Source of the DNA: an uncultured Nitrospinota bacterium
GTDB lineage: Bacteria; Nitrospinota; Nitrospinia; Nitrospinales; JAJDAT01
Assembly: GCA_964570665.1 (NCBI GenBank)
Contig: CAZMZH010000016.1
Location: 9,642-41,641 of the forward strand
DNA length: 32,000 bases
Direction of reading: 5' to 3'
Notes under the pieces: model-generated
What the model was told of the DNA's origin: nothing
Databases searched by the model: none
Seen by the model: the letters and a program-made list of their open reading frames with translations, nothing else
Translations under genes and position numbers: made by a program
Shown: positions 1 to 20,129 of the stretch, in pieces
How the letters are laid out: the number at the start of each line of letters is the position of its first letter
Position numbering within the stretch: position 1 is the stretch's first letter

Positions 1-138
1 TTGCGGTCCAATGGCCAATAAAAACGCCCCTTCTTTATAGGGAACGGCCAATACGGGGTAAGCTTTTTTTAACTTTTCTTGGACATAACCATGCCTAGAA
101 GAAACGGCTTCAGTCCAGCGAAAGGGTTCGTCAAACAT
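1..138 (-). CDS. prcA: 20S proteasome alpha subunit PrcA, N-terminal part (gene continues beyond window start)
   Basis: Reverse complement from 138 reads MFDEPFRWTEAVSSRHGYVQEKLKKAYPVLAVPYKEGAFLLAIGPQ. Starts 8 bp inside the prcB 3' end; operon context. Confidence 0.75.
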   Translation of the reverse strand, partial: MFDEPFRWTEAVSSRHGYVQEKLKKAYPVLAVPYKEGAFLLAIGPQ

Positions 139-943
139 GAGCGTTTCTCTTCATAGATTTTTCAAAAATGGTGGCGATTTCTTCTTCATCCATAAATTGA
201 TAGCCGTCGGATGAAATGATAGAAATGATAGGGAAAATTTTATCTTCAGGCCGAGCCTTTCCGGTGGCGGTGTCAAAATGAGCGGCTGTATGCAAGAGAC
301 GGATCGCAAGTTCGGTCGCTTCTTCTCTAGTTCTTTCGGCTAATCGTTTGTCGCCCCACATATCTTCATATTCCAGTACCCCTTTTACCATGGGGGAACC
401 AGAACCTGTAACCGTGTGAGTGGTCATTTGAAATTCGGCGCCTAAGAGATCGTAAAAATGTATAGAAGATTTTTCTGTGTCTTGGTCGTATAGGGCAAAT
501 ATTGGACTGACGGCCCCAACGCCTTGCATAGCCATTCCAACATTTTCTTTTAACAAGCGTGAGAGCGCTCTGATTTTACCTTCGGCGCTTAAAGGTTGTA
601 GTTGGGATCGGCGATAATATTCGAAGTTGTGCGATAACACCCGAGCCATTTCAAAAGCGGTCGCAGGAGCGCCAGCGATAGCCATAACTGAGTAATCGTC
701 AATTGGGATTACTTTATCGCAACGTTCATACATGATGCTATTACCGGCCGTAGCTCTTCGGTCGCCGGCAACAATAACCCCTCCCTTAAAATGAAAAGCT
801 AAAACCGTCGTTCCATGAATCAATTCCGAGGAATCGATTTTACTTGGTTTTTCCAGACTATCAGATGGCAGAGAGTATCCGGATTTTTGCAATAATTCCC
901 AAAAGTCTCCAGGCGAGGTGAACTGATTTTCTATTTTCTTCAC
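131..943 (-). CDS. prcB: 20S proteasome beta subunit PrcB with propeptide (predicted cleavage before Thr in IHG|TTVLAFHFKGGVIVAGDRRATAG)
   Basis: Conserved GTT(T)V..F..GGV..AGDRRATAG catalytic N-terminus and beta-subunit fold motifs; GTG start overlapping the upstream stop. Confidence 0.95.
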   Translation of the reverse strand: MKKIENQFTSPGDFWELLQKSGYSLPSDSLEKPSKIDSSELIHGTTVLAFHFKGGVIVAGDRRATAGNSIMYERCDKVIPIDDYSVMAIAGAPATAFEMARVLSHNFEYYRRSQLQPLSAEGKIRALSRLLKENVGMAMQGVGAVSPIFALYDQDTEKSSIHFYDLLGAEFQMTTHTVTGSGSPMVKGVLEYEDMWGDKRLAERTREEATELAIRLLHTAAHFDTATGKARPEDKIFPIISIISSDGYQFMDEEEIATIFEKSMKRNAHV

Positions 944-1110
944 TCGCCCGTCCGCTGTTTATACTTTTCAGATTGTTTGGGGTCGACTTTTCGCATCCGT
1001 TTTAAAATATTGTCTTTTCCAGGCGACGAAACATCGGGTTTTTTAGGCCCGTCTTCGCGTCGTTCTGGAGGGGCGTCTTTTTTCTCTTCCCTTCTTAATG
1101 GATCGCTCAT
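940..1110 (-). CDS. Pup-like protein modifier UBact, 56 aa: MSDPLRREEKKDAPPERREDGPKKPDVSSPGKDNILKRMRKVDPKQSEKYKQRTGE (not in supplied ORF track)
   Basis: Translated by hand from the reverse complement. Charged disordered N-terminus, NILKRMRKVDP..S.KY.QRTGE C-terminus with terminal Gly-Glu, AAGGAG Shine-Dalgarno upstream, ATGA/GTGA overlaps with dop and prcB, canonical position between dop and prcB. Confidence 0.93.
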   Translation of the reverse strand: MSDPLRREEKKDAPPERREDGPKKPDVSSPGKDNILKRMRKVDPKQSEKYKQRTGE

Positions 1111-2588
1111 GCAAACCGCTCCTTTTCCAATTTTAAAGCTTCAGAAACTTCTTCGGGAGTAATCACCCGAGTTAAATCGTTATAACTTCCATCTTTATAT
1201 TCTACGCCTGTCCAATGAATATTTTTAATAGAATCTGCACAATATTCTACAGCTTTTCCTCGGACCATGGCGCGTGTCCCATCAGGAGGTGAATCCATTG
1301 CTTCGGCAATCTTTTCTTCCGGTGAAAACTGAAGAATTCTTCCTTCTTGCTCCAGTCCGCGAAAAAGTCCGCGTTCTGGATCTATATTATGATACTCCAA
1401 ATCGAGGCTTTTCATCCATGGATCGTTCCACTCCAAATGCTCAGCGACCATAAATTCGGCAAAAAGCTTCTTTTTTATCGCCCAGTCTATACGATTCGAA
1501 AGTTTTTCGGGAGAATTTTTTAGATCGTCTAAAGTCCTTTCCCACTCCTTTAATATCCAGTCCCAGTCTTCTCTTTGTCCAGCGTATGATTTTTGGGCTT
1601 TTTCCAAATAAAATTCCTGAATTTCTAAAGAAGAAATGGATTTTCCATTTTTTCGTTTTAATAAAATGGTACCCGTTAGATCCCTTGAAACTTCTTTAAT
1701 GTCCCATACAGGTTCGGTCAGTTCTGGAACGGTTCCCAATTTTTCTTCTCCTATGAGAGTAAGTACCAATTGGGTTGCTCCCACTTTTAAAGCCGTTGCA
1801 TAAGGCGACATATTTGCGTCGCCCAAGATCAAATGAAGACGCCTGTATTTATCGGACGCTGCATGCGGCTCATCGCGTGTATTCACAATGGGTCTTTGAG
1901 TCATGGTTTCTATGCTCAAAAGACATTCTATAAAATCGGCTCTTTGTGATAACTGTAGTTTTTCGAAGGGAGCTAATTCTTTGCACTCGGTTCCAACTTT
2001 TCCGGATCCTGCATACAACTGCCGTGTCACTAAAAAAGGAACTAAACCGTCAACCCATTGTTGAAAAGGTAACGCTCGAGGGATCAGATAATTATCATGG
2101 GTCCCATAACTGTGGCCTATATAGTCGGTATTATTTTTAAAAAGCTGTATGGAGTCTTCGCCTAAATCTTTATTCCGTAGCCGAGCGCATTCCGCAAGTA
2201 TGTGTTCTCCCGCCTGATCGTGCGCCACTAAATCAAAAATGTTTGCGCATTCCGGAGTGCTGTATTCAGGATGGGTGTGATCGTTATAAAAACGAGCTCC
2301 GTTAGCCAAAACTCGATCGCATTTCATATCCCAATATGAATAGGGTCTTTTACGATCCTCCTTACAAAACTCGTCTTCCTCTTCGTCTTGGGCGAGACGT
2401 TCGACAGAAAAACCGCGTTGGTCCGTATGAGTTCGTTCTCTAAAATAAGCCCAAAGGCGGAATACGCTTTTTTTTTCGCAACGTTTCAATAACGCCATAG
2501 ACTCTTCTACGGGATCGGAATCTTCAACGTTTTCACGGATAATTCCGTATTCTGTTTCAATTCCCATTAAGGGAACAATATCGGTCAT
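1107..2588 (-). CDS. dop: Dop/PafA carboxylate-amine ligase family protein, most like Dop (depupylase/deamidase)
   Basis: MGIETEYGI N-terminus, NGARFYNDHTHPEYSTPEC, HDQAGE, VTRQLYAGSGKVG; located between ARC and the Pup-like gene. Confidence 0.88.
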   Translation of the reverse strand: MTDIVPLMGIETEYGIIRENVEDSDPVEESMALLKRCEKKSVFRLWAYFRERTHTDQRGFSVERLAQDEEEDEFCKEDRKRPYSYWDMKCDRVLANGARFYNDHTHPEYSTPECANIFDLVAHDQAGEHILAECARLRNKDLGEDSIQLFKNNTDYIGHSYGTHDNYLIPRALPFQQWVDGLVPFLVTRQLYAGSGKVGTECKELAPFEKLQLSQRADFIECLLSIETMTQRPIVNTRDEPHAASDKYRRLHLILGDANMSPYATALKVGATQLVLTLIGEEKLGTVPELTEPVWDIKEVSRDLTGTILLKRKNGKSISSLEIQEFYLEKAQKSYAGQREDWDWILKEWERTLDDLKNSPEKLSNRIDWAIKKKLFAEFMVAEHLEWNDPWMKSLDLEYHNIDPERGLFRGLEQEGRILQFSPEEKIAEAMDSPPDGTRAMVRGKAVEYCADSIKNIHWTGVEYKDGSYNDLTRVITPEEVSEALKLEKERFA

Positions 2589-4195
2589 ATCATGGAGCGA
2601 GTGAGAGTCTGATCTGTTGCGTCGTCGGATTCTTTAGGACGTCTAATTCGAGCTACGCTTTGAGAATCGAAGTCTAAAAGTTGGAGCCAATCTTCCATAT
2701 TAGGATCTGCGGGGAAAATACTTCCTTCATTAAACTCGTTTTCTATGGCTGAAGTTAGATCTTCAGGCTTGATGGTCAATTCTTCTCCTGCAATAGCCCG
2801 CTCAATGGCAATTTCTTTGGCCCGTTTAACCACATTTTCTAGAATGGCCCCCGAAATAAAATCATGCCAATAAAGTTTTTTCATATCCCCATTCTTTAAA
2901 GAAAGGGTCAAAACATTTTGTTTAGAGTCTTTTGAAAAAAGAGTTTCCAAAGCGGGCGTTATCATTTCTTCCACGCTGGATTTTTCAAACGGCAATTTTT
3001 CCGTTAAATAGATTTTTAGTATCTCTTCGCATCCTTGGCGATCTGGGCGAGAAACTTTAATTTTTCGATCAATTCTTCCCGGTCTCAAGATTGCGGGATC
3101 AATTAAGTCTGGCCTGTTTGTCGCTAATATTACGACCGCATCTCGAAGCGATTGCACGCCGTCCATTTCAGCGCAAAACATAGGAACCAAGGTATTAGAA
3201 ATATTATTGCCTCGCATAGCTTGTCGTGTTCCTAAAACGGATTCGGCTTCGTCGATAAAAATAAAAGGCATTTGTCCCTGGTCGCGATACTCCCGAGCTT
3301 TTTGAAAAATTTCGCGAACCTTTCTCTCAGATTCGCCTAACCACATATTCAAAATTTCGGGGCCTTTTACGTGGATGAATCGGCCTTGGATATCTTTACC
3401 GCCGTCTTCGCCTAGTTTGCTAACTATTTCCGTCAATATGGCTTTTCCAACCAGAGTTTTACCGCACCCTGGCGGGCCGTAAAAAAGAAACCCTCTTGGC
3501 AACTCGTATTCCATCTTCTCAATGATTTCTCCGTGTAAAATGGGATACTCAATTACTTTACGAACTTCGTTAACGGCTTTTTCCTGGCCGCCAACTCGGT
3601 TCCACTCCACCGGTTTGAAATCGTCTTCTACTAATTTGTTGGATTGCCGTTTGGGTAATTTGCCAATGACAACTTTTTGCGAAGGGTCTAAATAGACCTC
3701 GTCGCCTTCTTTAAACGATTCGCTTTCTAGGCCGTCCCGGATGTAAACCATAGATTCGGCGGCGCCGGTTCCTGAAGACACTAGCCATTGGTCATTTTCC
3801 AATTTACAAGAAAGCCTTGATAATGGACCTTGCTCGGGCATATTCAATTTTGAGATTATGGCGAAGCCCTCGTTTAAGGCCACTAAATCTCCTAATTTTA
3901 ATTCTTCTTCAATTTCTGGAGAAACCGCCGCCTGATATTCTTGACCTCCCACAGACAGCCTGAGCAAATCGCCTTCGCCAGGGCCTAAAACGACGCCAAT
4001 TCTATGGGCCGGGGATTTTAGCTGTTCGATAGTCTCTTCTAACGTTTTTATTTTCAACGTCAACCGCTGGGTTTCTTGCTGAGAATGAAGCAACGCATCG
4101 CGTAAGTCAAAAATCTTGGCTTGCAGTTCTGGGTGTTCCTCGGTTTCTTCTAAAATTCTTTCAATCAGTTCAGATATATGAGTCGAATCGCCCAT
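2585..4195 (-). CDS. arc: Proteasome-associated AAA+ ATPase ARC/Mpa
   Basis: N-terminal coiled coil, OB domain, Walker A GPPGCGKT, Walker B FIFIDEAE, GRIDRKIKVSRPD second region of homology. Confidence 0.93.
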   Translation of the reverse strand: MGDSTHISELIERILEETEEHPELQAKIFDLRDALLHSQQETQRLTLKIKTLEETIEQLKSPAHRIGVVLGPGEGDLLRLSVGGQEYQAAVSPEIEEELKLGDLVALNEGFAIISKLNMPEQGPLSRLSCKLENDQWLVSSGTGAAESMVYIRDGLESESFKEGDEVYLDPSQKVVIGKLPKRQSNKLVEDDFKPVEWNRVGGQEKAVNEVRKVIEYPILHGEIIEKMEYELPRGFLFYGPPGCGKTLVGKAILTEIVSKLGEDGGKDIQGRFIHVKGPEILNMWLGESERKVREIFQKAREYRDQGQMPFIFIDEAESVLGTRQAMRGNNISNTLVPMFCAEMDGVQSLRDAVVILATNRPDLIDPAILRPGRIDRKIKVSRPDRQGCEEILKIYLTEKLPFEKSSVEEMITPALETLFSKDSKQNVLTLSLKNGDMKKLYWHDFISGAILENVVKRAKEIAIERAIAGEELTIKPEDLTSAIENEFNEGSIFPADPNMEDWLQLLDFDSQSVARIRRPKESDDATDQTLTRSMI

Positions 4196-4455
4196 TAAAT
4201 TTCCTTATTTTGTATTGGGATTGAGTCCATTTTATGACCATTAAAAATAAAAGGTCAAGACAATTGTCTTAAAACCTATTTTAGCAAAAATCAAAAAATT
4301 TCTTTTTTTTCAATAGATTTTAAATGTATAGCGCAAAAAATCTATGGTTAAACCTATTTTTTAGATAATGGTTGCGAGTGGCGTTAATTACATGTAAAAA
4401 TGAGGAGAAGACCTGTTTTTTTTAATAGATTTACCTCCAATAAAACCAGCTAATT

Positions 4456-7634: not shown

Positions 7635-8795
7635 ATGAAAATTACCAAACATTTTTATAATTTTTTTTGTGGGGTCATACTTTCTTTATTCATTGCCAAC
7701 TCTGCCTGGGCGGTCAATGTTAATATTGACCCTGTAGGATATGAGGGTAATTGGGCGATAAAATTTGTTACCGGACAACTTTCTGGTCCACAAATTATCG
7801 ATCTACCGGCAAATAGCTCTTACACGCTTACAATTGGAACGTTTGGAATGTTTTTTAATATTGATGCCGCAGGTAACGTGTCATCCGCTGCAACGGATTC
7901 CATAGTAGCATCCGGTAATACCATTACGTTTAGAAACGTCACGATCAATTTTGACGCGGGGAATTATATTGGTTCAAGCGGTCCAAGGAATGCCGGCCCA
8001 CGTATTAATGGTTCCCACAGTAGAGTCTTGGTTCCGGGTATCTCATACCAATTGTTTATTGGGACACATATCGTTCCTTTAAGTATAGACGCAGCTGGCC
8101 AGGTCTCTTCAACCGCTACTGATTCTATTACGGCTTCGGGAAACGTGGTTACTTTTAACAATGTCAGTATAACGGTGGATCCAAATGGTTCGATCACTCC
8201 CTATTCGGTTAGATTTGCCACCGATAGAGTTACAGGAATTCAAACGTTGGTTCTGGTCCCAGGAATCTCTTATCAGTTTTTAACTTTTGGAGCGGTGAGA
8301 GGAGGAGGTCCTTTTTCCATCGTCGCCCCTTGTGAAATTATACCAACCACATTAGCAATCAATGATGACACTTTCGATTTCGCATGTTTCAATCCTGAAA
8401 TTCAGGTAGTAGTAGACATAAAACCGGGCGGCTGTGAAAACCCGATCAATTACAAAAGTAAAGGAAATACTCCAGTCGCCATTCTTGGCGCTGAGGATTT
8501 TGACGTTTCCACGATTGATGTCGATTCTATTCGCTTGGCTGGTCAAGAGGGTTTCAAGTTTTCAATCGAAGATGTTGCTAATTCCACCGAATGTGACGGG
8601 GTGGATGGAATAGAAGATTTAACTTTTAAAATCCAAACACAAACACTACTCGAAGGAATCAAGGACGCTGTTGGAGGTTTAAGCGATGGCGATACGGTTT
8701 CCGTAGAAGTTACCGGTAATTTAAATGAAGATTCTAACGGTACCGCAATAACAGGTGGCGACGAAGTTTCGATCTTGATAAAAGGTAAAAAGTAA
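7635..8795 (+). CDS. Secreted protein with internal ~75-aa repeats and a C-terminal IKPGG..PI..KSKGNTPVAILGAEDFDV domain
   Basis: Signal peptide (MKITKHFYNFFCGVILSLFIANSAWA), RBS gaggaaaacatc, internal repeats recognised by eye. Confidence 0.75.
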   Translation: MKITKHFYNFFCGVILSLFIANSAWAVNVNIDPVGYEGNWAIKFVTGQLSGPQIIDLPANSSYTLTIGTFGMFFNIDAAGNVSSAATDSIVASGNTITFRNVTINFDAGNYIGSSGPRNAGPRINGSHSRVLVPGISYQLFIGTHIVPLSIDAAGQVSSTATDSITASGNVVTFNNVSITVDPNGSITPYSVRFATDRVTGIQTLVLVPGISYQFLTFGAVRGGGPFSIVAPCEIIPTTLAINDDTFDFACFNPEIQVVVDIKPGGCENPINYKSKGNTPVAILGAEDFDVSTIDVDSIRLAGQEGFKFSIEDVANSTECDGVDGIEDLTFKIQTQTLLEGIKDAVGGLSDGDTVSVEVTGNLNEDSNGTAITGGDEVSILIKGKK

Positions 8796-9423: not shown

Positions 9424-12400
9424 CTAAACTAGTTCCGCTTTGGGCTGACTATCAATTGTTGGTGAATTTATAACACTACTACTTTCTCTGACTTTGGGAT
9501 AAGGACCAAATTTTAAATATAGGGCGGGTAGAAAAACAAGATTCAATAAGGTTGAGGTGATCAACCCACCTAGAATAACTATGGCTAAGGGATGTTCGAT
9601 TTCTTGACCAGGTTGTAGTCCTGTCAATACGATAGGCAATAACGCTAAACCAGTGGTCAGAGCTGTCATAAGAATTGGGGCTAAACGTTCAGTGGCCCCA
9701 CGAATTGCGAGATCCAGTCCAAAGGGAACGTCCTCCTCCATTTCCAAATGTCGGTAATGGCTGATGAGCATGATTGCATTGCGTACGGCAATACCCAGCA
9801 CAGTGATAAAACCGATCTGAGAACCCAACGAAAGGACGCCATCGGTTAAAAAGACGCTGATTACTCCGCCAACCAATGCAAAAGGCAACGTGAAAAAAAT
9901 TAATAATGCCAAACGCGCCGAATCGAAATGAGCGTGGAGGATGAGAAAAATTCCGAGTAAAGCGAGAATTGACCATTCGATCAATTTATTTTTAGCTTCC
10001 TGGCGGGCGGCGAATTCTCCTAAAAACTCTGGATAGTATCCTCTTTCGAAATCAAGACCTCGCACTGCGGTTTCAATTTCGCGAGCGACACTACCTAAAT
10101 CCTTTCCTTTGACGTTACAAGTGACGTCGATTCTTCTAGATGCGGCTTCGCGTGTGATTTGATTTGGAGTCGGGTTGATCGTGACATGAGCAACCTGTCC
10201 GAATGGGATATGTCCTCCAGAGGGAGTTTCAATCATCATAGAACGTAACGCGCTAACGTTTTGTTGAAGGCGAGGAACACCTCGGACAACCACATCGTCA
10301 ACTCGTTGCTTATGATAAATTTCTCCAACTTTCGTCCCTTGCATCAAAGTCGTTGCGGCGCTACGCACATCTCCTGGGGTCAGGCCAAATAAGTTTCCAG
10401 CATCCTTTTTAAATTTAACTTCAACTTGCGGAACTAAAACTTGAGGCTGAACCTTTAGATCAGACACGCCAATGATAGGGCGTATCGTATCAGCAACTTC
10501 TCCCGCTTTCGATCGAAGCTTTTCAAGGTTCTCTCCATATATCCGCACAACAATTGTTGCGCTCGCGCCGGTTAAAACTTCCTTGATGCGTTCTCGCAAA
10601 TATGTCAACAGATCCCGATACAATCCCGGGTAACCGTCCACCACTTCCTGAATTTTTTCTACGGTCGAATCGTAATTCACTTTTGGATCGAGACTGACCC
10701 AAAGCTCTGTAAAATTTGGACCAACCACTTCATCGGCCACTTCTGCCCTGCCAATGTGGGACCCAAAATTACGAACGCCGGGAATAGCGAGCAGTTCCTT
10801 ACTCACTCGTTTAGTGATGCGAACCATGGCTTCAAGCGAGGTTCCGGGTTTTTCAACCCAATGCATTAAAAAATCGTATTCCTTAAATTTTGGCAAAAAC
10901 TCTTCTCCTAATAAGGGTGTTAAAAGTAACGTGATACCCAAAGCGCTGGATATAATTAGTAATGCTAATTTCGGAAAACGAACGAAAAGCGGAAGCGATT
11001 TTCCGTACGCCAATTGGATTACCTTAACCAGTAGCGATTCCTTCTTCCCAGACTTTGCCACGCTTGGAAGTAGGATGAGAGAAAACGCCGGAGTAATTGT
11101 CAAAGCTACAAATAAAGAAGCTCCAATGGCCAGCACATAAGATAGAGCCAAGGGAGCAAAAAATGCGCCAACCAATCCTTCGAGAAAAAACACCGGGAAC
11201 ACGACTAAAACAACGATTAAACTTCCGTAAACCACCGCGCTTCGGACTTCAAAAGTTGCTTTGAGAACCACATGGAAGGCGTTTTGAGGATTATCTGCAT
11301 TAGCGTTCTCTCTCAGGCGACGTGTGATATTTTCAACGCCAATAATGGCATCATCCACAACACTGCCGAGCGCAATAATCAAACCCGCTAAAACCATCGT
11401 ATTAATAGTCTCTCCTCGATAATAAAGGATCAGCAAAGCGGTGATGAGAGATAAAGGAATAGCTAAAATACTGATAAATGCAGTTCGCCAATCATTGAGA
11501 AAAAATATCAAAACAACCACGACCAATAAACAACCAATCAAAAGAGCTTGATTTAAGTTCTTCAAGGACATTTCAATAAAGGTTGCAGGACGGAATATGG
11601 TGGAATCGATGTCAATATCCTGAAGCCCCGGACGTATACCGTCCAGCGTTTTTTCGATATTGCGCGTGACTTCAAAGGTATTGCCCCACGGCTGCTTCTC
11701 GACAATCAACAACAATCCGGTTTCCCCATTGATGACGGCATCTCCTATTGGAGGTGGGTAGCTTTCCACAACATCGCTGATATCGCCAAGCGTAATCGGA
11801 GCGCCGTTTATAAAGGTGACGACTACTTCGGAAAGTTGCTGAGGGGTTTGAATATCCGGAATATGCGAGATCGCCAACCGTTGATTGGGTGTGTCGATAA
11901 AACCGCCGCCACTGACGGTAAAGGCATCGCCAGTTGCGCGAACGATTTCCTTCAAGCTCACCCCGTTAGCCATCAAACGATCTGGGTCGACCTGAACCTG
12001 GAGTTGGCGATCACGCTGCCCCCATATTGCAACATTGGCGACACCGGGAATTGCCATCAAACGAGGTCGAATTGTCCACTTACCCACCGTGGTCATTTCC
12101 ATTTGCGAAAGTTTTGAAGACGTCATACCGATTTTCAAAACCCGGCTTGTAGACGATAAAGGAGAAAGAATCACCGGATGACTGGCAACAACGGGCAATA
12201 ACGCAGGAGCTCGTGATAAGCGTTCTTGCACCAATTGACGAGCCTGGATTAAGTCTGTACCTTCTTTAAAGATCAGAGTAACGGATGATAAACCGAGTAC
12301 CGTTTTGGATCGCAAGGTTTTCAGCCAAGTCGTTCCATTGAGCAAACTTTCCAAGGGCACGGTAATCAGGGCTTCAACTTCGGCGGTGGACAATCCCGGA

Positions 12401-12558
12401 GCTTCCGTTTGAACTTCCACTAGTGGAGGAGCAAATTCAGGAAAGACATCTAAAGGGGATTTTTGGATTATCTGGAAACCCACAACTATGAAAACGACTC
12501 CAAGAATTGCAGTGGCAACGCGAAGGCGAAGAGCTGTTGATATCAACCAATGGATCAT
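9424..12558 (-). CDS. Heavy-metal efflux RND permease (CusA/CzcA family)
   Basis: [49 protein letters not shown]; 1044 aa with RND TM organisation. Confidence 0.92.
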
Positions 12559-13784
12559 TTACCGCTCCCGAACTCTGTTCCAAAGAGTTCTGCCGCCCCA
12601 GCGCTGACGACGCTCGTTCCTTCTTCTGGGCCACGATCCAAGACCGCCCAATCGTTTACGACCGCGATCAACTCAATTCTGCTACGGATGAATTTATTCG
12701 TTTTGGTGTTTTTATAAACCCAGGTTCCACCGTGAATATCGTACAAAACAGCAGACTGGGGTACCGTCAAACCTTTTTCTTGATTTTTCATCTCCAGCGT
12801 AACCATGACTTTTTCCCCAGGTTGGAACTTGTTATCGCGAAGGGGTAGTTCGAAGTAAAGATCCACTGAAGCCGCAAATGGATTAGCCGATGGAGGAGCC
12901 ATTACAGGATGAGCGCGAATTCCTTTAGATTGGGAACCGTCCGAAAGGTTCCGTACGATAATCATTTGATCAGGGTCAATTTGATTGATCAAACCGGCGT
13001 ACACCGGAACGCGGACCCATAAGTTGTTTTGAGCGGCCATTTCAAATAGCGGCGATCCCGCAGACACACGCTGCCCTGAGGCAACATGCAAATTTTTAAG
13101 AATACCGCCAATGGGAGCTCCCACTTCCAATGGAGCAAATTCCTTTGCGGAAGCGTTAAAATCCTTATTATCGAGAAGATTGACCATGGCTTTGGCCAAC
13201 CGTAATCTTGTTTTGGAATTCTCAAGCCCACTCAACGCCTCTTCTTGAGCTCGGACGCTGCCAGCGCCTTCTTTTAATAATTGAGTTGCCCGTCCAGCTT
13301 TTTGTTTAGCCAGCAAAAACTGGTTTTGGGCAACCTTCAGATTGTCTTTCGCATTGAGCAAATCTTTTTCGGGTGGGAGCATCAATAACCGCATGACGGT
13401 TTCATCCAGAATTAGACTTGCGCCCACTGGAGGAATTCTAATTTTCTCGGGATCTAAAACAATCCCAGATAGTGGAGCGGATACGGTGATGGTTTGACCC
13501 GGCGGTACCATGATCTCCCCACCCAGAATTCTAGTTTTTTGGATCGTACGCCGCTCAACAGTAGCAGTTTGGATTCCTAATCGTTCTCTTGCCGCATTGG
13601 TAAGGGTGATCGTTACAAGCGAGCCTTCTTTGACAGAAGTTTTGACAGGGTTTATTTTTTCAGACTTTTCATTATGGGGCGCTATATTTTTTTGAATTAA
13701 GTCGCAGCTACAGAGGGAAAAGGTCAATAGAATTACAAACAAAAACCGTGAGTATTTATTCAATATATTTCGTAAACAATTCAT
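12555..13784 (-). CDS. RND efflux periplasmic adaptor (CusB/CzcB type), lipoprotein-like
   Basis: Lipobox-like [78 protein letters not shown]. Confidence 0.87.
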
Positions 13785-15148
13785 GATGAAAACGTTTTTA
13801 AAAATTCTACGGGTCTACCGATACTGTGCCCTAACAGAGCGGATTTACGCCCCAATTCAGCCAAAACCTCTGTTTGTTTTAGCTTTGTTTGAATGAAACC
13901 CCGTTGTACTTCCAAGTTCGACAGGTAAGAGATTTCTCCATTTTTCAAAGCTTCTTTGGATAGATTTAACTTTTGCACTTGTTGTGGAAAGATCTTCTGT
14001 GTAATGAGTTCCAATAGTTTCAGAGTGGAAATGTATTGAGTATAGGATTCTCTGACTGACAACTTAATTTGTTCACGAACCGCAATATATCGTTTAACGG
14101 CTGAATCGAGTTGAGCTTGGGCGCGAGCAATACCACCTTCGTTTAGGTTCATGATGGGAATATCAATCTTGAATCCCGGTCCAACTTCGGTGTTGTTCTC
14201 GTTCGCATCCAAAATCGCAATGAAGTTAAAAATCTTTTTTTCTTCCCATCCGATTTGTTCTCCTGCGGATTCGATCTCCAATTCGGCTATTCTCATATCA
14301 GGTCTGGACGCTAAGGCAATCTCAATTAAGGCGGTCAAATCCTTTTTGAGGTTTGAGGCAGAAGTCGTCGGGACAAGCTTCAAATCTTTTTCAAAATCGA
14401 TTCCAAGGAAAGATCGTAATCGGTGTCGAAAGGTGATTTCGTCGTGCGCTAAACGATTACTCTGTTCCAATGCGTTTAAGGCGTCGATTTTTTTTTGCTG
14501 GGCTTCCAGTTCGCTGATATCGCCTAAGCGAAGTCGGGCTTGAGTGATCTTGGAAATTTCATCCAATAAGCGGACGTTTTCTTTTGCCAACGACAAGGCT
14601 TTTTTGGTTTGTAGCAGATTCAAATAAGCAATCTGGGTATCGCGTGCGAGATTCAAACCGTTTTGAATCAAATTGTCGGCAACACGGCTGGCGTTCAATT
14701 TGGCGACAGCAATTCGGTGTGGTCTGACCCTTAGTTCGGATGCTGGCCACATCAACCAAGCTTCCAATTGTTTAGGGCCAATGGGAAATAATAAAGAAAA
14801 GTTAGGATTCTTGATAAGACCGGCCTGCAACACTTCGGCTCGGGAAACTCCTAACTGTGCAAGGTCCGCTTGAAATGCGGCATTGTTCCAAAGCGCGATG
14901 GCAACCGCAGCCTGTTCACTCAAGCCCCGCTCAATAGAAATTCCTGGAGGAATTTGACGATTTCCATAAACGGGATCAGGAGTGACCCTTCCTCCGATGT
15001 TTTTTTCAATCTCGGTCGAGACATATTCGAATGAAGAATTAGAAATTTGATTGGCGCATCCGGTTAAAACCAGCCCTATAGAAAACGCTCTAAGAGCGAT
15101 ATACAAATGAAATTTTACTAACCGTCCCATTTTTTTCACACTTCCCAA
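13781..15148 (-). CDS. Outer-membrane efflux protein (TolC/CusC/CzcC family)
   Basis: GISIERGLSEQAAVAIALWNNAAFQADLAQLGVSRAEVLQAGLIKNPNFSLLFP, coiled-coil TolC repeats; 4-bp overlap with adaptor gene. Confidence 0.85.
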   Translation of the reverse strand: MGSVKKMGRLVKFHLYIALRAFSIGLVLTGCANQISNSSFEYVSTEIEKNIGGRVTPDPVYGNRQIPPGISIERGLSEQAAVAIALWNNAAFQADLAQLGVSRAEVLQAGLIKNPNFSLLFPIGPKQLEAWLMWPASELRVRPHRIAVAKLNASRVADNLIQNGLNLARDTQIAYLNLLQTKKALSLAKENVRLLDEISKITQARLRLGDISELEAQQKKIDALNALEQSNRLAHDEITFRHRLRSFLGIDFEKDLKLVPTTSASNLKKDLTALIEIALASRPDMRIAELEIESAGEQIGWEEKKIFNFIAILDANENNTEVGPGFKIDIPIMNLNEGGIARAQAQLDSAVKRYIAVREQIKLSVRESYTQYISTLKLLELITQKIFPQQVQKLNLSKEALKNGEISYLSNLEVQRGFIQTKLKQTEVLAELGRKSALLGHSIGRPVEFLKTFSS

Positions 15149-15262
15149 TCATAGACAGACCAAAAAATCCTTTTAGTTCTAAGGCTTTGAAAATTGATTG
15201 AATTAACAATCCTATTTCAAACTTATGTATTGAAAAGTATACGGAATGATGAGTTGGAAGGA

Positions 15263-15290
15263 CGTCAAAAAAGCGTTAAAAAAACGTTAA
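15263..15290 (-). promoter_or_regulatory. Putative OmpR/PhoB-type response-regulator binding site upstream of the efflux genes
   Basis: Direct repeats CGTCAA (15263), CGTTAA (15274), CGTTAA (15285) with exact 11-bp periodicity. Confidence 0.4.
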
Positions 15291-15309
15291 ATTTAGAAGC
15301 TGATCTAAA

Positions 15310-16611
15310 TTAAGATGGAAATACTGGAGTTTCGATAGGTTCGGCAAATGTCAATATGAACCGACTACCATGTGGTTCAACCGGTTCCAACCCAATATTC
15401 CAATGGTGGTAATCACAAATGCGCCTCACAATGGACAATCCCAACCCTTCGCCTTGTGGTTCATTTTTTAGTAATGAGATTTGGTAATGACGTTCAAATA
15501 TTGAATCCTTAAACTCTTCTGGAATCCCACGGCCAGTATCCTCTACATGGATCGATTCCGGATTTAAGGTCACGGTGATCGCCCCTTGGTTCGTATGATG
15601 GATCGCGTTGCGTAGGAGATTTTTGATAACTACCCGAAATAATTGAGGATTTCCATTAATTTGGAGTACGCCATTAGTTTTGAAATAAATTAGCACTTCT
15701 TTGGTCTCCACCTCTTCGCGGATTTCTTCAATCTCCTGGTGAATCATTGGTTCCACTTGAATATCTTTAAAATGAGTTGCAGAGTTAGCATTATCTCTGG
15801 ATAAAGTTAGGAATGTATCAACTAGCGATCGCATTTCCTTGGACGCTTGATGAATTCGTTGGATAGTTTCCCTTCGTTTATTATCGTTATCGGGAGTCTC
15901 TAATAACACCTCGCAGGAACTTGAAATTACCATTAAAGGGGTTCTTAATTCATGGCTGACGTCTCCGGTAAATAATTTCTCGCGTTCGAGAAAAGCTTGG
16001 AGTTTTTCCGCATATTGCCCAAATGTATTTGCCAACATCCCAACCTCGTCATTGGAATAATCCTTAGCGAATTCTTTTATATTTGCTTCGGTGGGGTTAA
16101 CGTTGTCCACATGATTGGCAAGCTCAATAACAGGAGCAATAATTTTGTTAGCCGTTACAAACCCCAACCAAATCGATCCGGCTAAAGCGATAATAAATCC
16201 AATGGCAATGGTCGCTCCAATGCTTTGTTCCAAGTTTTCGAATTGGCTTTGGTCCTGAACCAGGAAATAGCGAGTCTTACCCTCGTTTCGAACAACAACA
16301 TGATAGGCTTTATTATCGAGAAAAATTTCGGAGTGGTCTTTTTTTAGGTCTTTTAAGTATTGGGGAAAACCGGAGGATTGATTTTCTTTTTGGATATAAA
16401 GTTTAACTCCGGAAGGTAGATCGGTCGTTAACCCATTCTTTGCAGCTTTGATCAGCCACTCTGCATCCTGCTCAAGATGGCGATAGAAGAGGTCGCTTTC
16501 CAATCCATGGATTATTGAAAATACACTGACACCAAAGGCCCCGCATAAGATTAGGGTGAGTAAAAAAAAAGCGATGACCAATCGGTTGCGAAGTGTTTGC
16601 TTAAACTTCAT
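15310..16611 (-). CDS. Sensor histidine kinase (HAMP, HisKA, HATPase)
   Basis: FTGDVSHELRTPLMVI, NLLRNAIHHT, VEDTGRGIP, GLGLSIVRRIC. Confidence 0.92.
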   Translation of the reverse strand: MKFKQTLRNRLVIAFFLLTLILCGAFGVSVFSIIHGLESDLFYRHLEQDAEWLIKAAKNGLTTDLPSGVKLYIQKENQSSGFPQYLKDLKKDHSEIFLDNKAYHVVVRNEGKTRYFLVQDQSQFENLEQSIGATIAIGFIIALAGSIWLGFVTANKIIAPVIELANHVDNVNPTEANIKEFAKDYSNDEVGMLANTFGQYAEKLQAFLEREKLFTGDVSHELRTPLMVISSSCEVLLETPDNDNKRRETIQRIHQASKEMRSLVDTFLTLSRDNANSATHFKDIQVEPMIHQEIEEIREEVETKEVLIYFKTNGVLQINGNPQLFRVVIKNLLRNAIHHTNQGAITVTLNPESIHVEDTGRGIPEEFKDSIFERHYQISLLKNEPQGEGLGLSIVRRICDYHHWNIGLEPVEPHGSRFILTFAEPIETPVFPS

Positions 16612-17288
16612 GGGGATTCATCGATCAATCGATACCCAATTCGAGTAACGGTTACCAAGGATTCTTTTTTAAACGGCTTATCAATAGATTGCCGCAATGC
16701 ATGAATATGGGTACGCAACGCGTCGCTTTCGCATAGTTCGTCTCCCCAAATCAACTCTTCCAGCTTTTCCTTTTTGACGACATCTGGCGAAACGCGCATC
16801 AAGCACTCTAAAACTTTTAAACCAATCGGGCCAATTTTGATCGGTGTCTCTGAACGTTTCACCTCTAGCGTGGTGGTGTTAAATGTTAAATCTCCAACTT
16901 GCAACCAGTTTCCTACTGCTGTCTTTTGGCTTCTTTTAAATACGGCATCGATTCTGGCTTTCAATTCGGACAAATCAAAAGGTTTAACCAAATAGTCGTC
17001 GGCCCCCGCTTCAAATCCAACTAGTTTATCTTTAACTTGGTCCTTAGCCGTTAACATAATAATCGGCGTTTGGTTTTTTGCATCATTGCGGAGCCGTTTG
17101 CATATTGTCACTCCATCAATACCCGGAAGCATAATATCGAGAATGATCAAATCGAATTTCTGCGTTGCCGCCAAGTGTAATCCAGTCAAACCATCCTCGG
17201 CGCAATCGGTCGTGTAACCCCTGCCACTCAAATAATCGGCAATATTTTGAAGGATGTCGCGGTTGTCTTCGATTACAAGAATTTTCAT
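16608..17288 (-). CDS. OmpR-family response regulator
   Basis: MKILVIEDNRDILQNIADYL, DLIILDIMLPGIDG, LTAKDQVKDKLVGFEAGADDYLVKPF, winged-helix C-terminus. Confidence 0.93.
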   Translation of the reverse strand: MKILVIEDNRDILQNIADYLSGRGYTTDCAEDGLTGLHLAATQKFDLIILDIMLPGIDGVTICKRLRNDAKNQTPIIMLTAKDQVKDKLVGFEAGADDYLVKPFDLSELKARIDAVFKRSQKTAVGNWLQVGDLTFNTTTLEVKRSETPIKIGPIGLKVLECLMRVSPDVVKKEKLEELIWGDELCESDALRTHIHALRQSIDKPFKKESLVTVTRIGYRLIDESP

Positions 17289-18054: not shown

Positions 18055-18456
18055 TCACTCAGATGAGCAACATCCAGCTTGACCGAAAACGCCATCATAA
18101 GGAATTTCACCTTGTAAACGCTTAACGTAATGATCCGGGTCCTTGCGGAATACTTCTGGGCAATAGGGGCATCGGCAAAAGAATACTTTCCATCCAGCAA
18201 TCTCCATTCGTACTGTCCACTGAACAGGTTTTTCCGCCAAACATGTTGGACATACTACTAAATCCTTGGTTTCTTGAAGATATCGTGGAGGATCTTCATT
18301 GAAGAGGTCAGTGCAGCCCTGGCAACAAAAAAAATATTCTATACCTTCGTAGGTAGTAGTTGTCCATCGATCTTCACCTATTCCAAGTCTAATTAAAGAA
18401 CAACCACAGGTTGGACAAATGGAGGTCACAATCTTTTTTGCTGAGTCAATTGTCAT
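18055..18456 (-). CDS. Cys-rich protein with two TRASH/YHS-like metal-binding units
   Basis: SICPTCGCSL...GIEYFFCCQGCTDLFNEDPPRYL and VVCPTCLAEKPVQWTV...GWKVFFCRCPYCPEVFRKDPDHYV; C-terminal CCSSE. Confidence 0.6.
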   Translation of the reverse strand: MTIDSAKKIVTSICPTCGCSLIRLGIGEDRWTTTTYEGIEYFFCCQGCTDLFNEDPPRYLQETKDLVVCPTCLAEKPVQWTVRMEIAGWKVFFCRCPYCPEVFRKDPDHYVKRLQGEIPYDGVFGQAGCCSSE

Positions 18457-18634
18457 TGCATTGGCTCTTTTCAGTTTGATTCATTTCATCACAACAAGAA
18501 GATTCTTTTTTCTTAGGTAGTAAATCCACTACGAAATCAATCAGTGACTGCAATTTGCTCCTTGTACATTCACAGGCTTCTTCTGAAGAAACTGTCTCCT
18601 CTTCTATCTTGTCCCAATCTACATATTTTTTCAT
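18446..18634 (-). CDS. Small Cys-containing protein, 62 aa, unknown function
   Basis: ACECT...SSCCDEM...SQC; overlaps both operon neighbours (11 bp and 4 bp). Confidence 0.6.
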   Translation of the reverse strand: MKKYVDWDKIEEETVSSEEACECTRSKLQSLIDFVVDLLPKKKESSCCDEMNQTEKSQCNDN

Positions 18635-19500
18635 AGCAACAACGTGCCTCCATAAACTAAAACCAAAAATACTAATATTTTTGCAAAAATTCCACCCGAT
18701 TGTTGGTTTTGCCCTAAATGTGAGTGTCCTTGTGCATCATATCCAATATACCCTCCCAAGGCAATTATCCCTAATGCGGCTTGGGTCTTTAGAACAGGAT
18801 CTGGAAATGATGTTATGGCGAGGGCTAAAATAGGCAGAGATAATGCTAATCCCTTATATAGTAACCTTTCAAATGGAATAAAGTGTTCAATCAATTGCAT
18901 AGAAAAAGCGAAATACCAGACTAAAGCGATCCCTTGTATCCACCAATCTGACGCAAAGAGAACTATTGGGATAATACAAACCAGGGTACAGAAAACAGCA
19001 TGACTGAGGCCCATTTTAAATCGTTCCCAATAGCCATACTCCAGAGCTTGCATATCTTTATTCTTGGTTAGTCCATTATTTAAGAATTCTTTTAAATCAG
19101 TAAAGTAAACCGGACCATATATACCCTCCCAACCATGTTCTTTTAGCTCTTTTCTTTTTACTCCAGCCACGGATAATTGTGGCAGTATTAATTTTTTGTG
19201 ATTCACTAATTTTGCTACATCGTATACTTTCAAGTGTGAAAGAACAGTGTCTGTAGTGAAAACTCCCTCGGCGGCTGCACACCAAACATTTGTTCCTTTG
19301 GTATTAACTACTAAGAGAAAGCAATCTAAAGCCTCCTTTTTTAAATATTCTTTTAAGTGCCTGACTGTGTAATCAAAATTACAGGTAACTAGGATCGGAG
19401 AAGTTTTATCCGGGTTTCCTACAGCAATGGTTTCTGGTTCGCATGGGAATCTGGCAAAACGAAATAGTGTTTGATAAATATCTTTAATCCAGCCAATCAT
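18631..19500 (-). CDS. HgcA-like corrinoid membrane protein (divergent)
   Basis: AVGNPDKTSPILVTCNFDYTVRHLKEYL, NTKGTNVWCAAAEGVFTTDTV (canonical HgcA cap helix is N(V/I)WCA(A/S)GK), KKLILPQLSVAGV, GIYGPVYFTDLKEFL, then a C-terminal multi-TM domain. Confidence 0.75.
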   Translation of the reverse strand: MIGWIKDIYQTLFRFARFPCEPETIAVGNPDKTSPILVTCNFDYTVRHLKEYLKKEALDCFLLVVNTKGTNVWCAAAEGVFTTDTVLSHLKVYDVAKLVNHKKLILPQLSVAGVKRKELKEHGWEGIYGPVYFTDLKEFLNNGLTKNKDMQALEYGYWERFKMGLSHAVFCTLVCIIPIVLFASDWWIQGIALVWYFAFSMQLIEHFIPFERLLYKGLALSLPILALAITSFPDPVLKTQAALGIIALGGYIGYDAQGHSHLGQNQQSGGIFAKILVFLVLVYGGTLLL

Positions 19501-20129
19501 TTTTTAATTTCCAAAAGGATAAACATTCCTAACATAAATGATTTGCAATTAACTTTTTTCAAACCTGCCTCCCTAACTTCCTCCTCAAAATTGGGAATTG
19601 CATTGGTAGTAGTTTGAGTCATTATCCAAGTGAGTAAACGCATTGGCAACCTGAAGGCATAGTAAAAGCATTTAGCTAGAAAGTTTGCTGGAATTATTTC
19701 ATCGCCAATAAAAACTTTTCCTCCATTCTTTAAAATTCTTTTAATCTGCTTCATTACATGAACCCGTTCTGCACGAGTCAGTTCGCTAAATGCCAGCGTA
19801 CTTAAGACGATATCAAACGATTCATCCTCCAAATGCTCATCAAGATTGCTCAAGGAAATATTTAGGTAGCTTGCGGTAGGAGAATTCCTTTTTGCCACTG
19901 CCAGCATACCGCTGTTGGCATCCACTCCGGTAACTTGTGCGCCTCTTTCAATACACATTTGCGCCAAGGTCCCTGTACCACAGCCCAAATCAAGGACTTC
20001 ATCTCCAGACTTGGTTTGAGCGGCAATTTGCTGTTTGATTTTAGTCAAAGATCCTAGAGTTAATAAACCCATACCAATATCGTAACGTTCAGGTCGAGAC
20101 TCAAGAATTTTCATGTAGACAAATGACAT
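19497..20129 (-). CDS. Class I SAM-dependent methyltransferase
   Basis: GDEVLDLGCGTGTLAQMCIERGAQVTGVDANSGMLAVAKRN, DIVLSTLAFSEL. Alternative start possible at MKILESRPERYD. Confidence 0.85.
   Translation of the reverse strand: MSFVYMKILESRPERYDIGMGLLTLGSLTKIKQQIAAQTKSGDEVLDLGCGTGTLAQMCIERGAQVTGVDANSGMLAVAKRNSPTASYLNISLSNLDEHLEDESFDIVLSTLAFSELTRAERVHVMKQIKRILKNGGKVFIGDEIIPANFLAKCFYYAFRLPMRLLTWIMTQTTTNAIPNFEEEVREAGLKKVNCKSFMLGMFILLEIKK

Follow-up and report, generated by a model that had tools for sequence, protein, structure and literature searches.

Organization of the locus

The window analysed here is a stretch of 32,000 nucleotides (nt) from an uncultured Nitrospinota bacterium, and the gene in question is a small minus-strand open reading frame (ORF) close to its start, which encodes the ubiquitin-like protein UBact within an operon for a bacterial 20S proteasome. 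The UBact coding sequence lies at 940..1110 (-) and consists of 56 codons followed by a TGA stop, with the translation MSDPLRREEKKDAPPERREDGPKKPDVSSPGKDNILKRMRKVDPKQSEKYKQRTGE; the terminal Glu codon, GAG, occupies 945..943 and the stop codon occupies 942..940. The ATG of UBact (1110..1108) overlaps the stop codon of dop (1109..1107) as ATGA, and its stop codon overlaps the GTG start of prcB (943..941) as GTGA. A Shine–Dalgarno sequence, AAGGAG, is read directly at 1119..1124 (-), 8 nt 5' of the ATG and within the 3' end of dop, and the same hexamer is found 8 nt 5' of the first in-frame UBact ATG in all 13 of the related loci that were inspected. A minus-strand protein of 56 amino acids (aa) with these two overlaps had been proposed in an earlier note on this DNA (hereafter the original prediction); the ORF exists as described, from ATG to TGA, and both overlaps can be read in the sequence.

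The neighbouring genes form a compact proteasome operon. The mpa/arc homologue (2585..4195, -) encodes a proteasomal AAA+ ATPase of 536 aa with two oligonucleotide/oligosaccharide-binding (OB) domains, which scores 388 bits on TIGR03689, contains the Pfam domains Prot_ATP_ID_OB_N, Prot_ATP_ID_OB_C and AAA, and has the Mycobacterium proteasome-associated ATPase (5kwa and 7px9) as its best matches in the PDB. It is followed by the dop homologue (1107..2588, -; 493 aa; PF03136, 511 bits), the product of which is the presumed de-UBactylase, by UBact itself, and by prcB (131..943, -), which starts with GTG and encodes a 20S β-subunit of 270 aa including a propeptide (TIGR03690, 169 bits; PF00227, 103 bits). 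The 5' part of prcA (1..137, -), encoding the 20S α-subunit, has an ATG that overlaps the end of prcB and runs past the window edge. The naming of the neighbours dop and prcB in the original prediction, and the assignment of Mpa, are supported by matches in NCBIfam, Pfam and the PDB. The part of the operon beyond the window was followed on a contig from ENA (ERZ27249630, referred to as L001), which shows 100% protein identity to the window for the four complete shared genes and continues with a full prcA of 247 aa and then with a second gene of the Pup-ligase family, a pafA homologue of 486 aa (11713..13170 of L001). The operon order is mpa-dop-UBact-prcB-prcA, with pafA located just past the window edge, and all of the junctions overlap by 4–8 nt, which indicates a translationally coupled operon.

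A candidate promoter of the operon, with the σ70-like sequence TTGACC-18-TAAAAT (10/12), is located at 4229..4258 (-), about 35 nt 5' of mpa. A scan of the operon region for promoters and terminators gave match counts within the shuffled expectation, and the match 5' of mpa, the best promoter-like one, is to be read as a consensus match and not as functional evidence; the Rfam and tRNA scans of the whole window gave no matches. On L001, a caspase-family (Peptidase_C14) gene (14961..16088) is found about 1.8 kb 3' of pafA, after a YaiI/YqxD-family gene and nadA, and the arrangement pafA-YaiI/YqxD-nadA-Peptidase_C14 recurs on a second, less similar contig with an identical UBact.

Identification of UBact and its homologues

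The first 8 kb of the window holds 37 ORFs of at least 40 aa, so that a length of 56 codons is by itself not beyond chance; the UBact ORF is placed beyond chance by its profile match (E of about 1e-19 to 7e-20), by its conservation in 84/84 loci and by the pattern of substitutions over codon positions. Membership of the UBact family was claimed in the original prediction, which suggested a profile search as a check. Both of the relevant models were matched above their cut-offs in this search: the NCBIfam model NF033388, 'ubiquitin-like protein UBact', with 71 bits against a cut-off of 35 (E 6.9e-20; profile positions 9–54 of 54), and the Pfam model PF20513, 'UBact', with 70.2 bits against a cut-off of 27.8 (E 1.2e-19; profile positions 2–43 of 43). 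The two scores are about twice the curated cut-offs, and the matches extend over essentially the whole model length. The C-terminus ILKRMRKVDP...QRTGE, on which the assignment had been based in part, is read directly in the translation.

From 5.8 billion proteins, 164 homologues were retrieved; PF20513 is found on all of the matches listed, and among these the named UBact homologues are from Nitrospinota. Several homologues, including those from Nitrospina watsonii and from metagenome-assembled genomes (MAGs) of Nitrospinaceae, carry the NCBI label 'ubiquitin-like protein UBact'. In an alignment of 32 UBact orthologues, 25 columns are invariant and are clustered in the segment LKRM..VDPKQ.E.YKQRTG. 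The identical 56-aa sequence can already be found in assemblies from NCBI, JGI, ENA and Logan; on at least nine contigs it has a gene call with a precomputed PF20513 annotation, and where a name is given, it is 'hypothetical protein'.

The N-terminus of the protein varies between lineages. Most Nitrospinota UBacts consist of 58 aa and start with M-[E/D/V]-M-[N/T/S]-D-P, whereas the clade of the window is without the first two codons and has 56 aa; this clade retains AAGGAG exactly 8 nt 5' of its ATG, and the stop codon of dop has moved accordingly. Many representatives of the family (P0139, P0167, P0191, P0199, P0205 and others) have a length of 90–215 aa and carry the 40 conserved residues at their very C-terminal end, and these long forms would reflect either long disordered extensions of the N-terminus or start codons that were mis-called in other lineages.

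The description of the gene as 'unlisted' in the original prediction is to be qualified. The gene is missing from the ORF track that accompanied the sequence, and public gene callers already call the protein with PF20513 attached. The antisense ORF that was noted at the same place exists at 977..1162 (+), with 61 aa and a TTG start. The 56-aa sense ORF was most likely missing, and the 61-aa antisense ORF listed, because the track probably used a minimum length of 60 aa, and the 'unlisted' status of UBact is thus most likely a threshold effect and not biology.

UBact was described by Lehmann, Udasin, Livneh and Ciechanover (2017; BBRC 483:946; PMID 28087277), as cited in PMC12751074. Compared with known UBact (PF20513/NF033388), the window protein has the same full-length model match, R-T-G-E end, place between dop and prcB, short length and predicted disorder. 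It shows no substantial difference, apart from belonging to the Glu-ended minority (4/80 species representatives) and the absence of the first two residues (M-E/D/V). The window protein is a conserved UBact copy in the usual proteasome operon, and its recognition here is the re-identification of a described family that is already known. Nitrospinota are reportedly among the phyla in which UBact was first found, and the first description of 2017 by Lehmann and coworkers is reported to have described a motif R-[T/S]-G-[E/Q] with which the protein terminates and to have noted the E/Q dimorphism.

Conservation and selection

One genome per species was scanned, giving 443 loci with a UBact relative, of which the best 80 were fetched; nearly all of these are labelled Nitrospinota. 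The closest loci are from an uncultured Nitrospinota MAG (L005, 98%), a Nitrospinales MAG (L006, 96%) and Nitrospinia OFTM166 (L007, 95%), followed by L008 (91%). In tblastn searches with the six operon proteins, prcB is located directly 3' of UBact in 79/80 loci, and mpa, dop, prcA and pafA are all present wherever the contig is long enough. The clade of the window, together with others, shows the order mpa-dop-UBact-prcB-prcA-pafA, whereas about 30 of the 80 loci, all of Nitrospina type, show the variant order mpa-dop-prcA-UBact-prcB-pafA, in which prcA is placed between dop and UBact (these include L035, L040–L042, L052–L057, L066, L068–L074, L082 and L083).

Conservation in the syntenic loci of relatives, a further check suggested with the original prediction, is complete for the reading frame, since the UBact ORF is open in 84/84 loci. 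The numbers of variable sites at codon positions 1, 2 and 3 are 35, 24 and 55, respectively, and the synonymous and non-synonymous codon changes relative to the four closest species are in the ratios 17:1, 13:2, 14:3 and 24:5. The ratio of non-synonymous to synonymous substitution rates (dN/dS; Nei–Gojobori) is 0.009–0.045 for UBact. With dS saturated at about 1 or above, and undefined for two pairs, the dN/dS values given here allow a qualitative reading only. All parts of the system are under purifying selection.

Dop-type and PafA-type paralogues

The two Pup-ligase-family proteins of the operon were distinguished by their structural matches and by diagnostic residues. The 493-aa protein of the window matches the Dop structures 4b0r and 5lrt over its full length with 312 bits and matches PafA structures only from residue 92 with 254 bits; it scores 419 bits on TIGR03688 (Dop), below the cut-off of 492.3, and 371 bits on TIGR03686 (PafA). 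The 486-aa protein of L001 matches the PafA structure 4b0t over its full length with 246 bits, compared with 233 bits for Dop, and scores 328 bits on TIGR03686, below the cut-off of 551.3, and 316 bits on the Dop model.

The positions that are diagnostic for Dop and PafA (Hecht et al., PMC7947786, Table 1) were mapped through the structure-match alignments. The window protein is Dop-type at positions 3, 11, 13, 15, 25, 26 and 31 (S30, H104, S110, P112, F219, E221 and E227, respectively), with an insertion of the length of the Dop loop, without a PafA-type insertion after the catalytic Asp, and with a single PafA-like residue, S225. The L001 protein is PafA-type at positions 3, 7, 9, 11, 13, 25 and 46 (A29, F61, L70, G73, A78, H200 and D441, respectively), with a single Dop-like residue, P80 (Pro at position 15); where actinobacterial PafA has D-V-G-S-H at the catalytic Asp, the L001 protein has D-M-G-H, a motif shorter by one residue. 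Both paralogues keep the GIETE motif and the catalytic Asp, which is Asp103 in the window protein. Judged by the best PDB match and the diagnostic residues, the 493-aa protein of the window is Dop-type and the 486-aa protein of L001 is PafA-type.

The C-terminal glutamate

The original prediction emphasized that the protein ends in Glu and would therefore need no deamidation of Gln. The protein does end with RTGE, and no prior deamidation is needed because UBact already ends in Glu; the point is correct, but Glu is rare within Nitrospinota. Among the 80 species-representative loci, the terminal residue is Gln in 76 (CAA in 75 and CAG in one) and Glu in four, and these four are only the clade of the window itself (L005–L008), in which the codon is always GAG. 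A more distant metagenomic relative (P0003, 80% identical) is likewise Glu-ended. Over the whole family, represented by 147 sequences (one per 50%-identity cluster), the R[TS]G[EQ] end is found in 119, of which 74 have Q and 45 have E. Since Glu and Gln both occur family-wide as well as within Nitrospinota, the E/Q dimorphism is general in UBact, just as in Pup, and the alternation mirrors that of Pup-GGE and Pup-GGQ. The only rationale for such an alternation that we know of is deamidation-then-ligation chemistry.

The switch from Gln to Glu, from CAA TGA to GAG TGA, is a two-base change by which the overlapping start codon of prcB also turns from ATG into GTG, the context of this start being cAATGA in 74 loci and gaGTGA in the Glu clade. 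The second of the two base changes is synonymous for Glu in UBact, and GAA would have preserved the ATG of prcB. In the Glu-ended clade the dN/dS of Dop is 0.036–0.051, purifying selection that is as strong as that on Mpa or PrcB, and this is consistent with a retained role of Dop as the de-conjugase. The situation resembles that of Pup-GGE in actinobacteria such as Corynebacterium glutamicum, in which the encoded Glu is likewise ready for ligation and Dop is needed only for removal, yet is retained; UBact differs in that it is another tag family in another phylum, in which Glu is a lineage-specific minority and most members are Gln-ended.

Predicted structure and likeness to Pup

The disordered and charged N-terminus described in the original prediction is borne out by the predicted model, in which the N-terminal half is coil-like and charged. 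AlphaFold2 (AF2) with the family alignment gave a predicted TM-score (pTM) of 0.21, a mean predicted local distance difference test (pLDDT) of 67.6 and no globular fold; residues 1–31 are predicted as coil, and helices are predicted at residues 32–39 and 44–54 in the conserved C-terminal half. K, R, D, E and P are abundant in the sequence. The model agrees with the picture of a disordered tag in which the conserved half would fold on binding. Pup folds on binding and forms two helices when bound to PafA.

The UBact system shares with that of Pup (PF05639) the same chassis of Mpa/ARC, Dop, PafA and PrcB/PrcA, with an identical gene order, and UBact itself shares with Pup a similar size and disorder, the penultimate Gly, the terminal Glu/Gln dimorphism and the two helices of the C-terminal half, which for UBact are predicted.

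Proposed tagging pathway and alternative explanations

Taking the locus as a whole, we are fairly confident that 940..1110 (-) is a real and translated UBact gene, and that its product is a disordered tag which replaces Pup, is ligated by the PafA homologue to targets for degradation by Mpa–PrcAB and is removed by the Dop homologue. In this pathway UBact would be made by coupled translation within the overlapping mpa-dop-UBact-prcB-prcA-pafA operon. The PafA homologue, with ATP, would then activate the C-terminal Glu at its side-chain carboxylate, which it would join to target lysines through an isopeptide bond. The Mpa ring would recognize the tag, unfold the substrate and feed it into the PrcAB 20S core, and the Dop homologue would hydrolyse the isopeptide bond, so that the tagging is reversed. 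Every biochemical step in this scheme is proposed by homology to actinobacterial pupylation (reviewed in PMC3511204; see also PMC7947786); the reality of the gene, its family, its operon context, the identities of Dop and PafA with intact catalytic motifs, and the purifying selection are directly supported.

A number of observations weigh against this pathway. Experimental demonstration of UBact conjugation was absent from the literature searched, a search outside which the original description of 2017 fell. The window UBact gave no match to PF05639 (Pup) at E ≤ 10 in the Pfam scan, whereas four actinobacterial Pup sequences score 73–104 bits on this model; a PDB search with the UBact profile returned no Pup chain at E ≤ 10; and hhalign of UBact against an alignment of four Pup sequences gave a probability of 0.2% (E 0.31). 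By these comparisons there is no detectable sequence similarity between UBact and Pup, and filing UBact under the Pup family was rejected on the negative Pfam, PDB profile and hhalign results. UBact also has the end TGE and not GGE, and it is basic (net charge +5; +4 in the conserved half), whereas Mycobacterium Pup is strongly acidic (-12). Given the missing similarity and the opposite charge, Pup structures are no direct template for the way in which UBact would bind to Mpa, PafA and Dop.

The enzymes also deviate from those of actinobacteria. Both the Dop and the PafA homologue score under the equivalog cut-offs of NCBIfam, which are actinobacteria-trained, and they are therefore named Dop-type and PafA-type homologues and not equivalogs. 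The α-loop of the PafA homologue (positions 26–33 of the diagnostic table), a determinant of ligase activity, fits neither the PafA nor the Dop consensus. Mycobacterial Mpa ends with a GQYL/HbYX-type proteasome-docking motif with a penultimate Tyr, whereas the Mpa homologues from 71 loci (2585..2620 in the window) end with RSII in 53, RSVI in 11, RSMI in six and RSIL in one; since this R-S-[I/V/M]-[I/L] end lacks a motif of the GQYL/HbYX type, docking to the 20S core may differ. The first 62 residues of Mpa have a net charge of -7, most of which, by manual count, comes from residues 1–21 and not from the predicted coiled coil. A complementarity of charge of Mpa and the basic UBact is taken as a hint only and not as a result. 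The term 'Pup-related' used in the original prediction thus holds for the operon context and the C-terminal chemistry and does not hold at the sequence level: both lend good support to a mode of action like that of Pup, and it is membership of the Pup family that fails the tests.

Among the alternative explanations, one is that the plus-strand ORF at 977..1162 is the real gene and the minus-strand ORF is spurious. The antisense ORF is the longer of the two (61 versus 56 aa) and also shows a high synonymous fraction (0.52, compared with 0.55 for the sense ORF), but this fraction fails to separate the strands because the two frames have their wobble positions in common; the synonymous and non-synonymous counts were dropped as a strand discriminator, and the conservation of stop codons was used instead. 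The antisense frame contains one or two internal stops in 37/75 relatives, starts with TTG, lies antisense inside a tightly overlapping six-gene operon and has no Pfam match at E ≤ 10, whereas the sense ORF matches curated models at E of about 1e-19, so that this explanation is effectively refuted. It is conceivable instead that UBact is real and remains unconjugated, acting non-covalently as an accessory of the Mpa–proteasome complex (an adaptor, a gate regulator or an assembly factor) while Dop and PafA act elsewhere. Such a role would be in keeping with the absence of detectable Pup homology, the inverted charge, the lack of experimental support for conjugation in the literature searched and the divergent α-loop of the PafA homologue. 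The terminal G-[E/Q] is near-invariant, however, and its E/Q alternation is not easily accounted for unless ligation and deamidation chemistry is involved; moreover, UBact strictly co-occurs with Dop-type and PafA-type enzymes that keep GIETE and the catalytic Asp under strong purifying selection, and we therefore regard a purely non-covalent role as unlikely.

Conjugation could also be mainly regulatory and non-degradative, with the proteasome genes only loosely connected to it. This has been proposed for pupylation in actinobacteria without proteasomes, pupylation loci without proteasome genes exist (PMC3511204), and an Mpa without a GQYL-type C-terminus makes the docking to the 20S core only putative. 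In the present system, however, prcB and prcA are translationally coupled to UBact in one operon, adjoin it in 79/80 loci and are under purifying selection, and a tag that is mainly non-degradative seems very unlikely. A different question is the origin of UBact within the proposed tagging pathway. Instead of being a diverged Pup, UBact may be a charge-inverted tag that was independently recruited to the same chassis, with retuned binding surfaces and, in the clade of the window, a recent Gln-to-Glu switch after which Dop was kept; we put this forward as a tentative possibility, which is at present doubtful.

Other features of the window

Elsewhere in the window, a predicted secreted protein of 386 aa is encoded at 7635..8795 (+); it has an internal duplication (IDAAGNVSSAATDSIVASGNTITFRNVTI and IDAAGQVSSTATDSITASGNVVTFNNVSI) and no Pfam match. 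The region 9424..17288 (-) contains a heavy-metal efflux operon of the CusA/CzcA resistance–nodulation–division (RND) type, with an outer-membrane factor (13781..15148, -), an adaptor (12555..13784, -) and the RND pump (9424..12558, -; TIGR00914, 603 bits). ORFs at 15310..17288 (-), which adjoin the RND genes, resemble a histidine kinase and a response regulator by their sequence motifs.

A four-gene minus-strand operon and a divergent MerR-family regulator (20759..21358, +) occupy 18055..21358. The operon comprises a DUF169 gene (20139..20849, -), a methyltransferase (19497..20129, -) that matches the NCBIfam model 'corrinoid protein-associated methyltransferase CpaM' with 253 bits against a cut-off of 180, a membrane protein of 289 aa (18631..19500, -) and a Cys-rich YHS-domain protein (18055..18456, -). 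The membrane protein contains the motif NVWCAAAEG and matches HgcA (NF040863, 139 bits; PF03599); on the 'HgcAB-like fusion protein' model NF043039 it scores 227.5 bits, below the cut-off of 285, with only the HgcA-like part aligned. The operon resembles the HgcA-like module that has been reported for Nitrospina, except that the ferredoxin fusion is absent.

Conclusions

In conclusion, this study identifies a conserved UBact gene in the proteasome operon of an uncultured Nitrospinota bacterium. As a discovery it is of little weight, since the curated Pfam and NCBIfam models already capture the protein and the family was described in 2017 for Nitrospinae; its practical value is modest. Its residual value lies in the lineage-specific Gln-to-Glu switch with retention of Dop, in the inversion of charge relative to Pup, and in the ORF-length filter of 60 aa, which conceals a gene central to the function of the operon while letting a spurious antisense ORF through. 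The Glu-ended UBacts would be convenient starting material for a demonstration of ligation in vitro because no deamidation step is required. If the switch to Glu in this clade is indeed recent and Dop was kept after it, the clade would represent a natural experiment, suggesting that de-conjugation alone is enough to hold Dop under selection in UBact systems.

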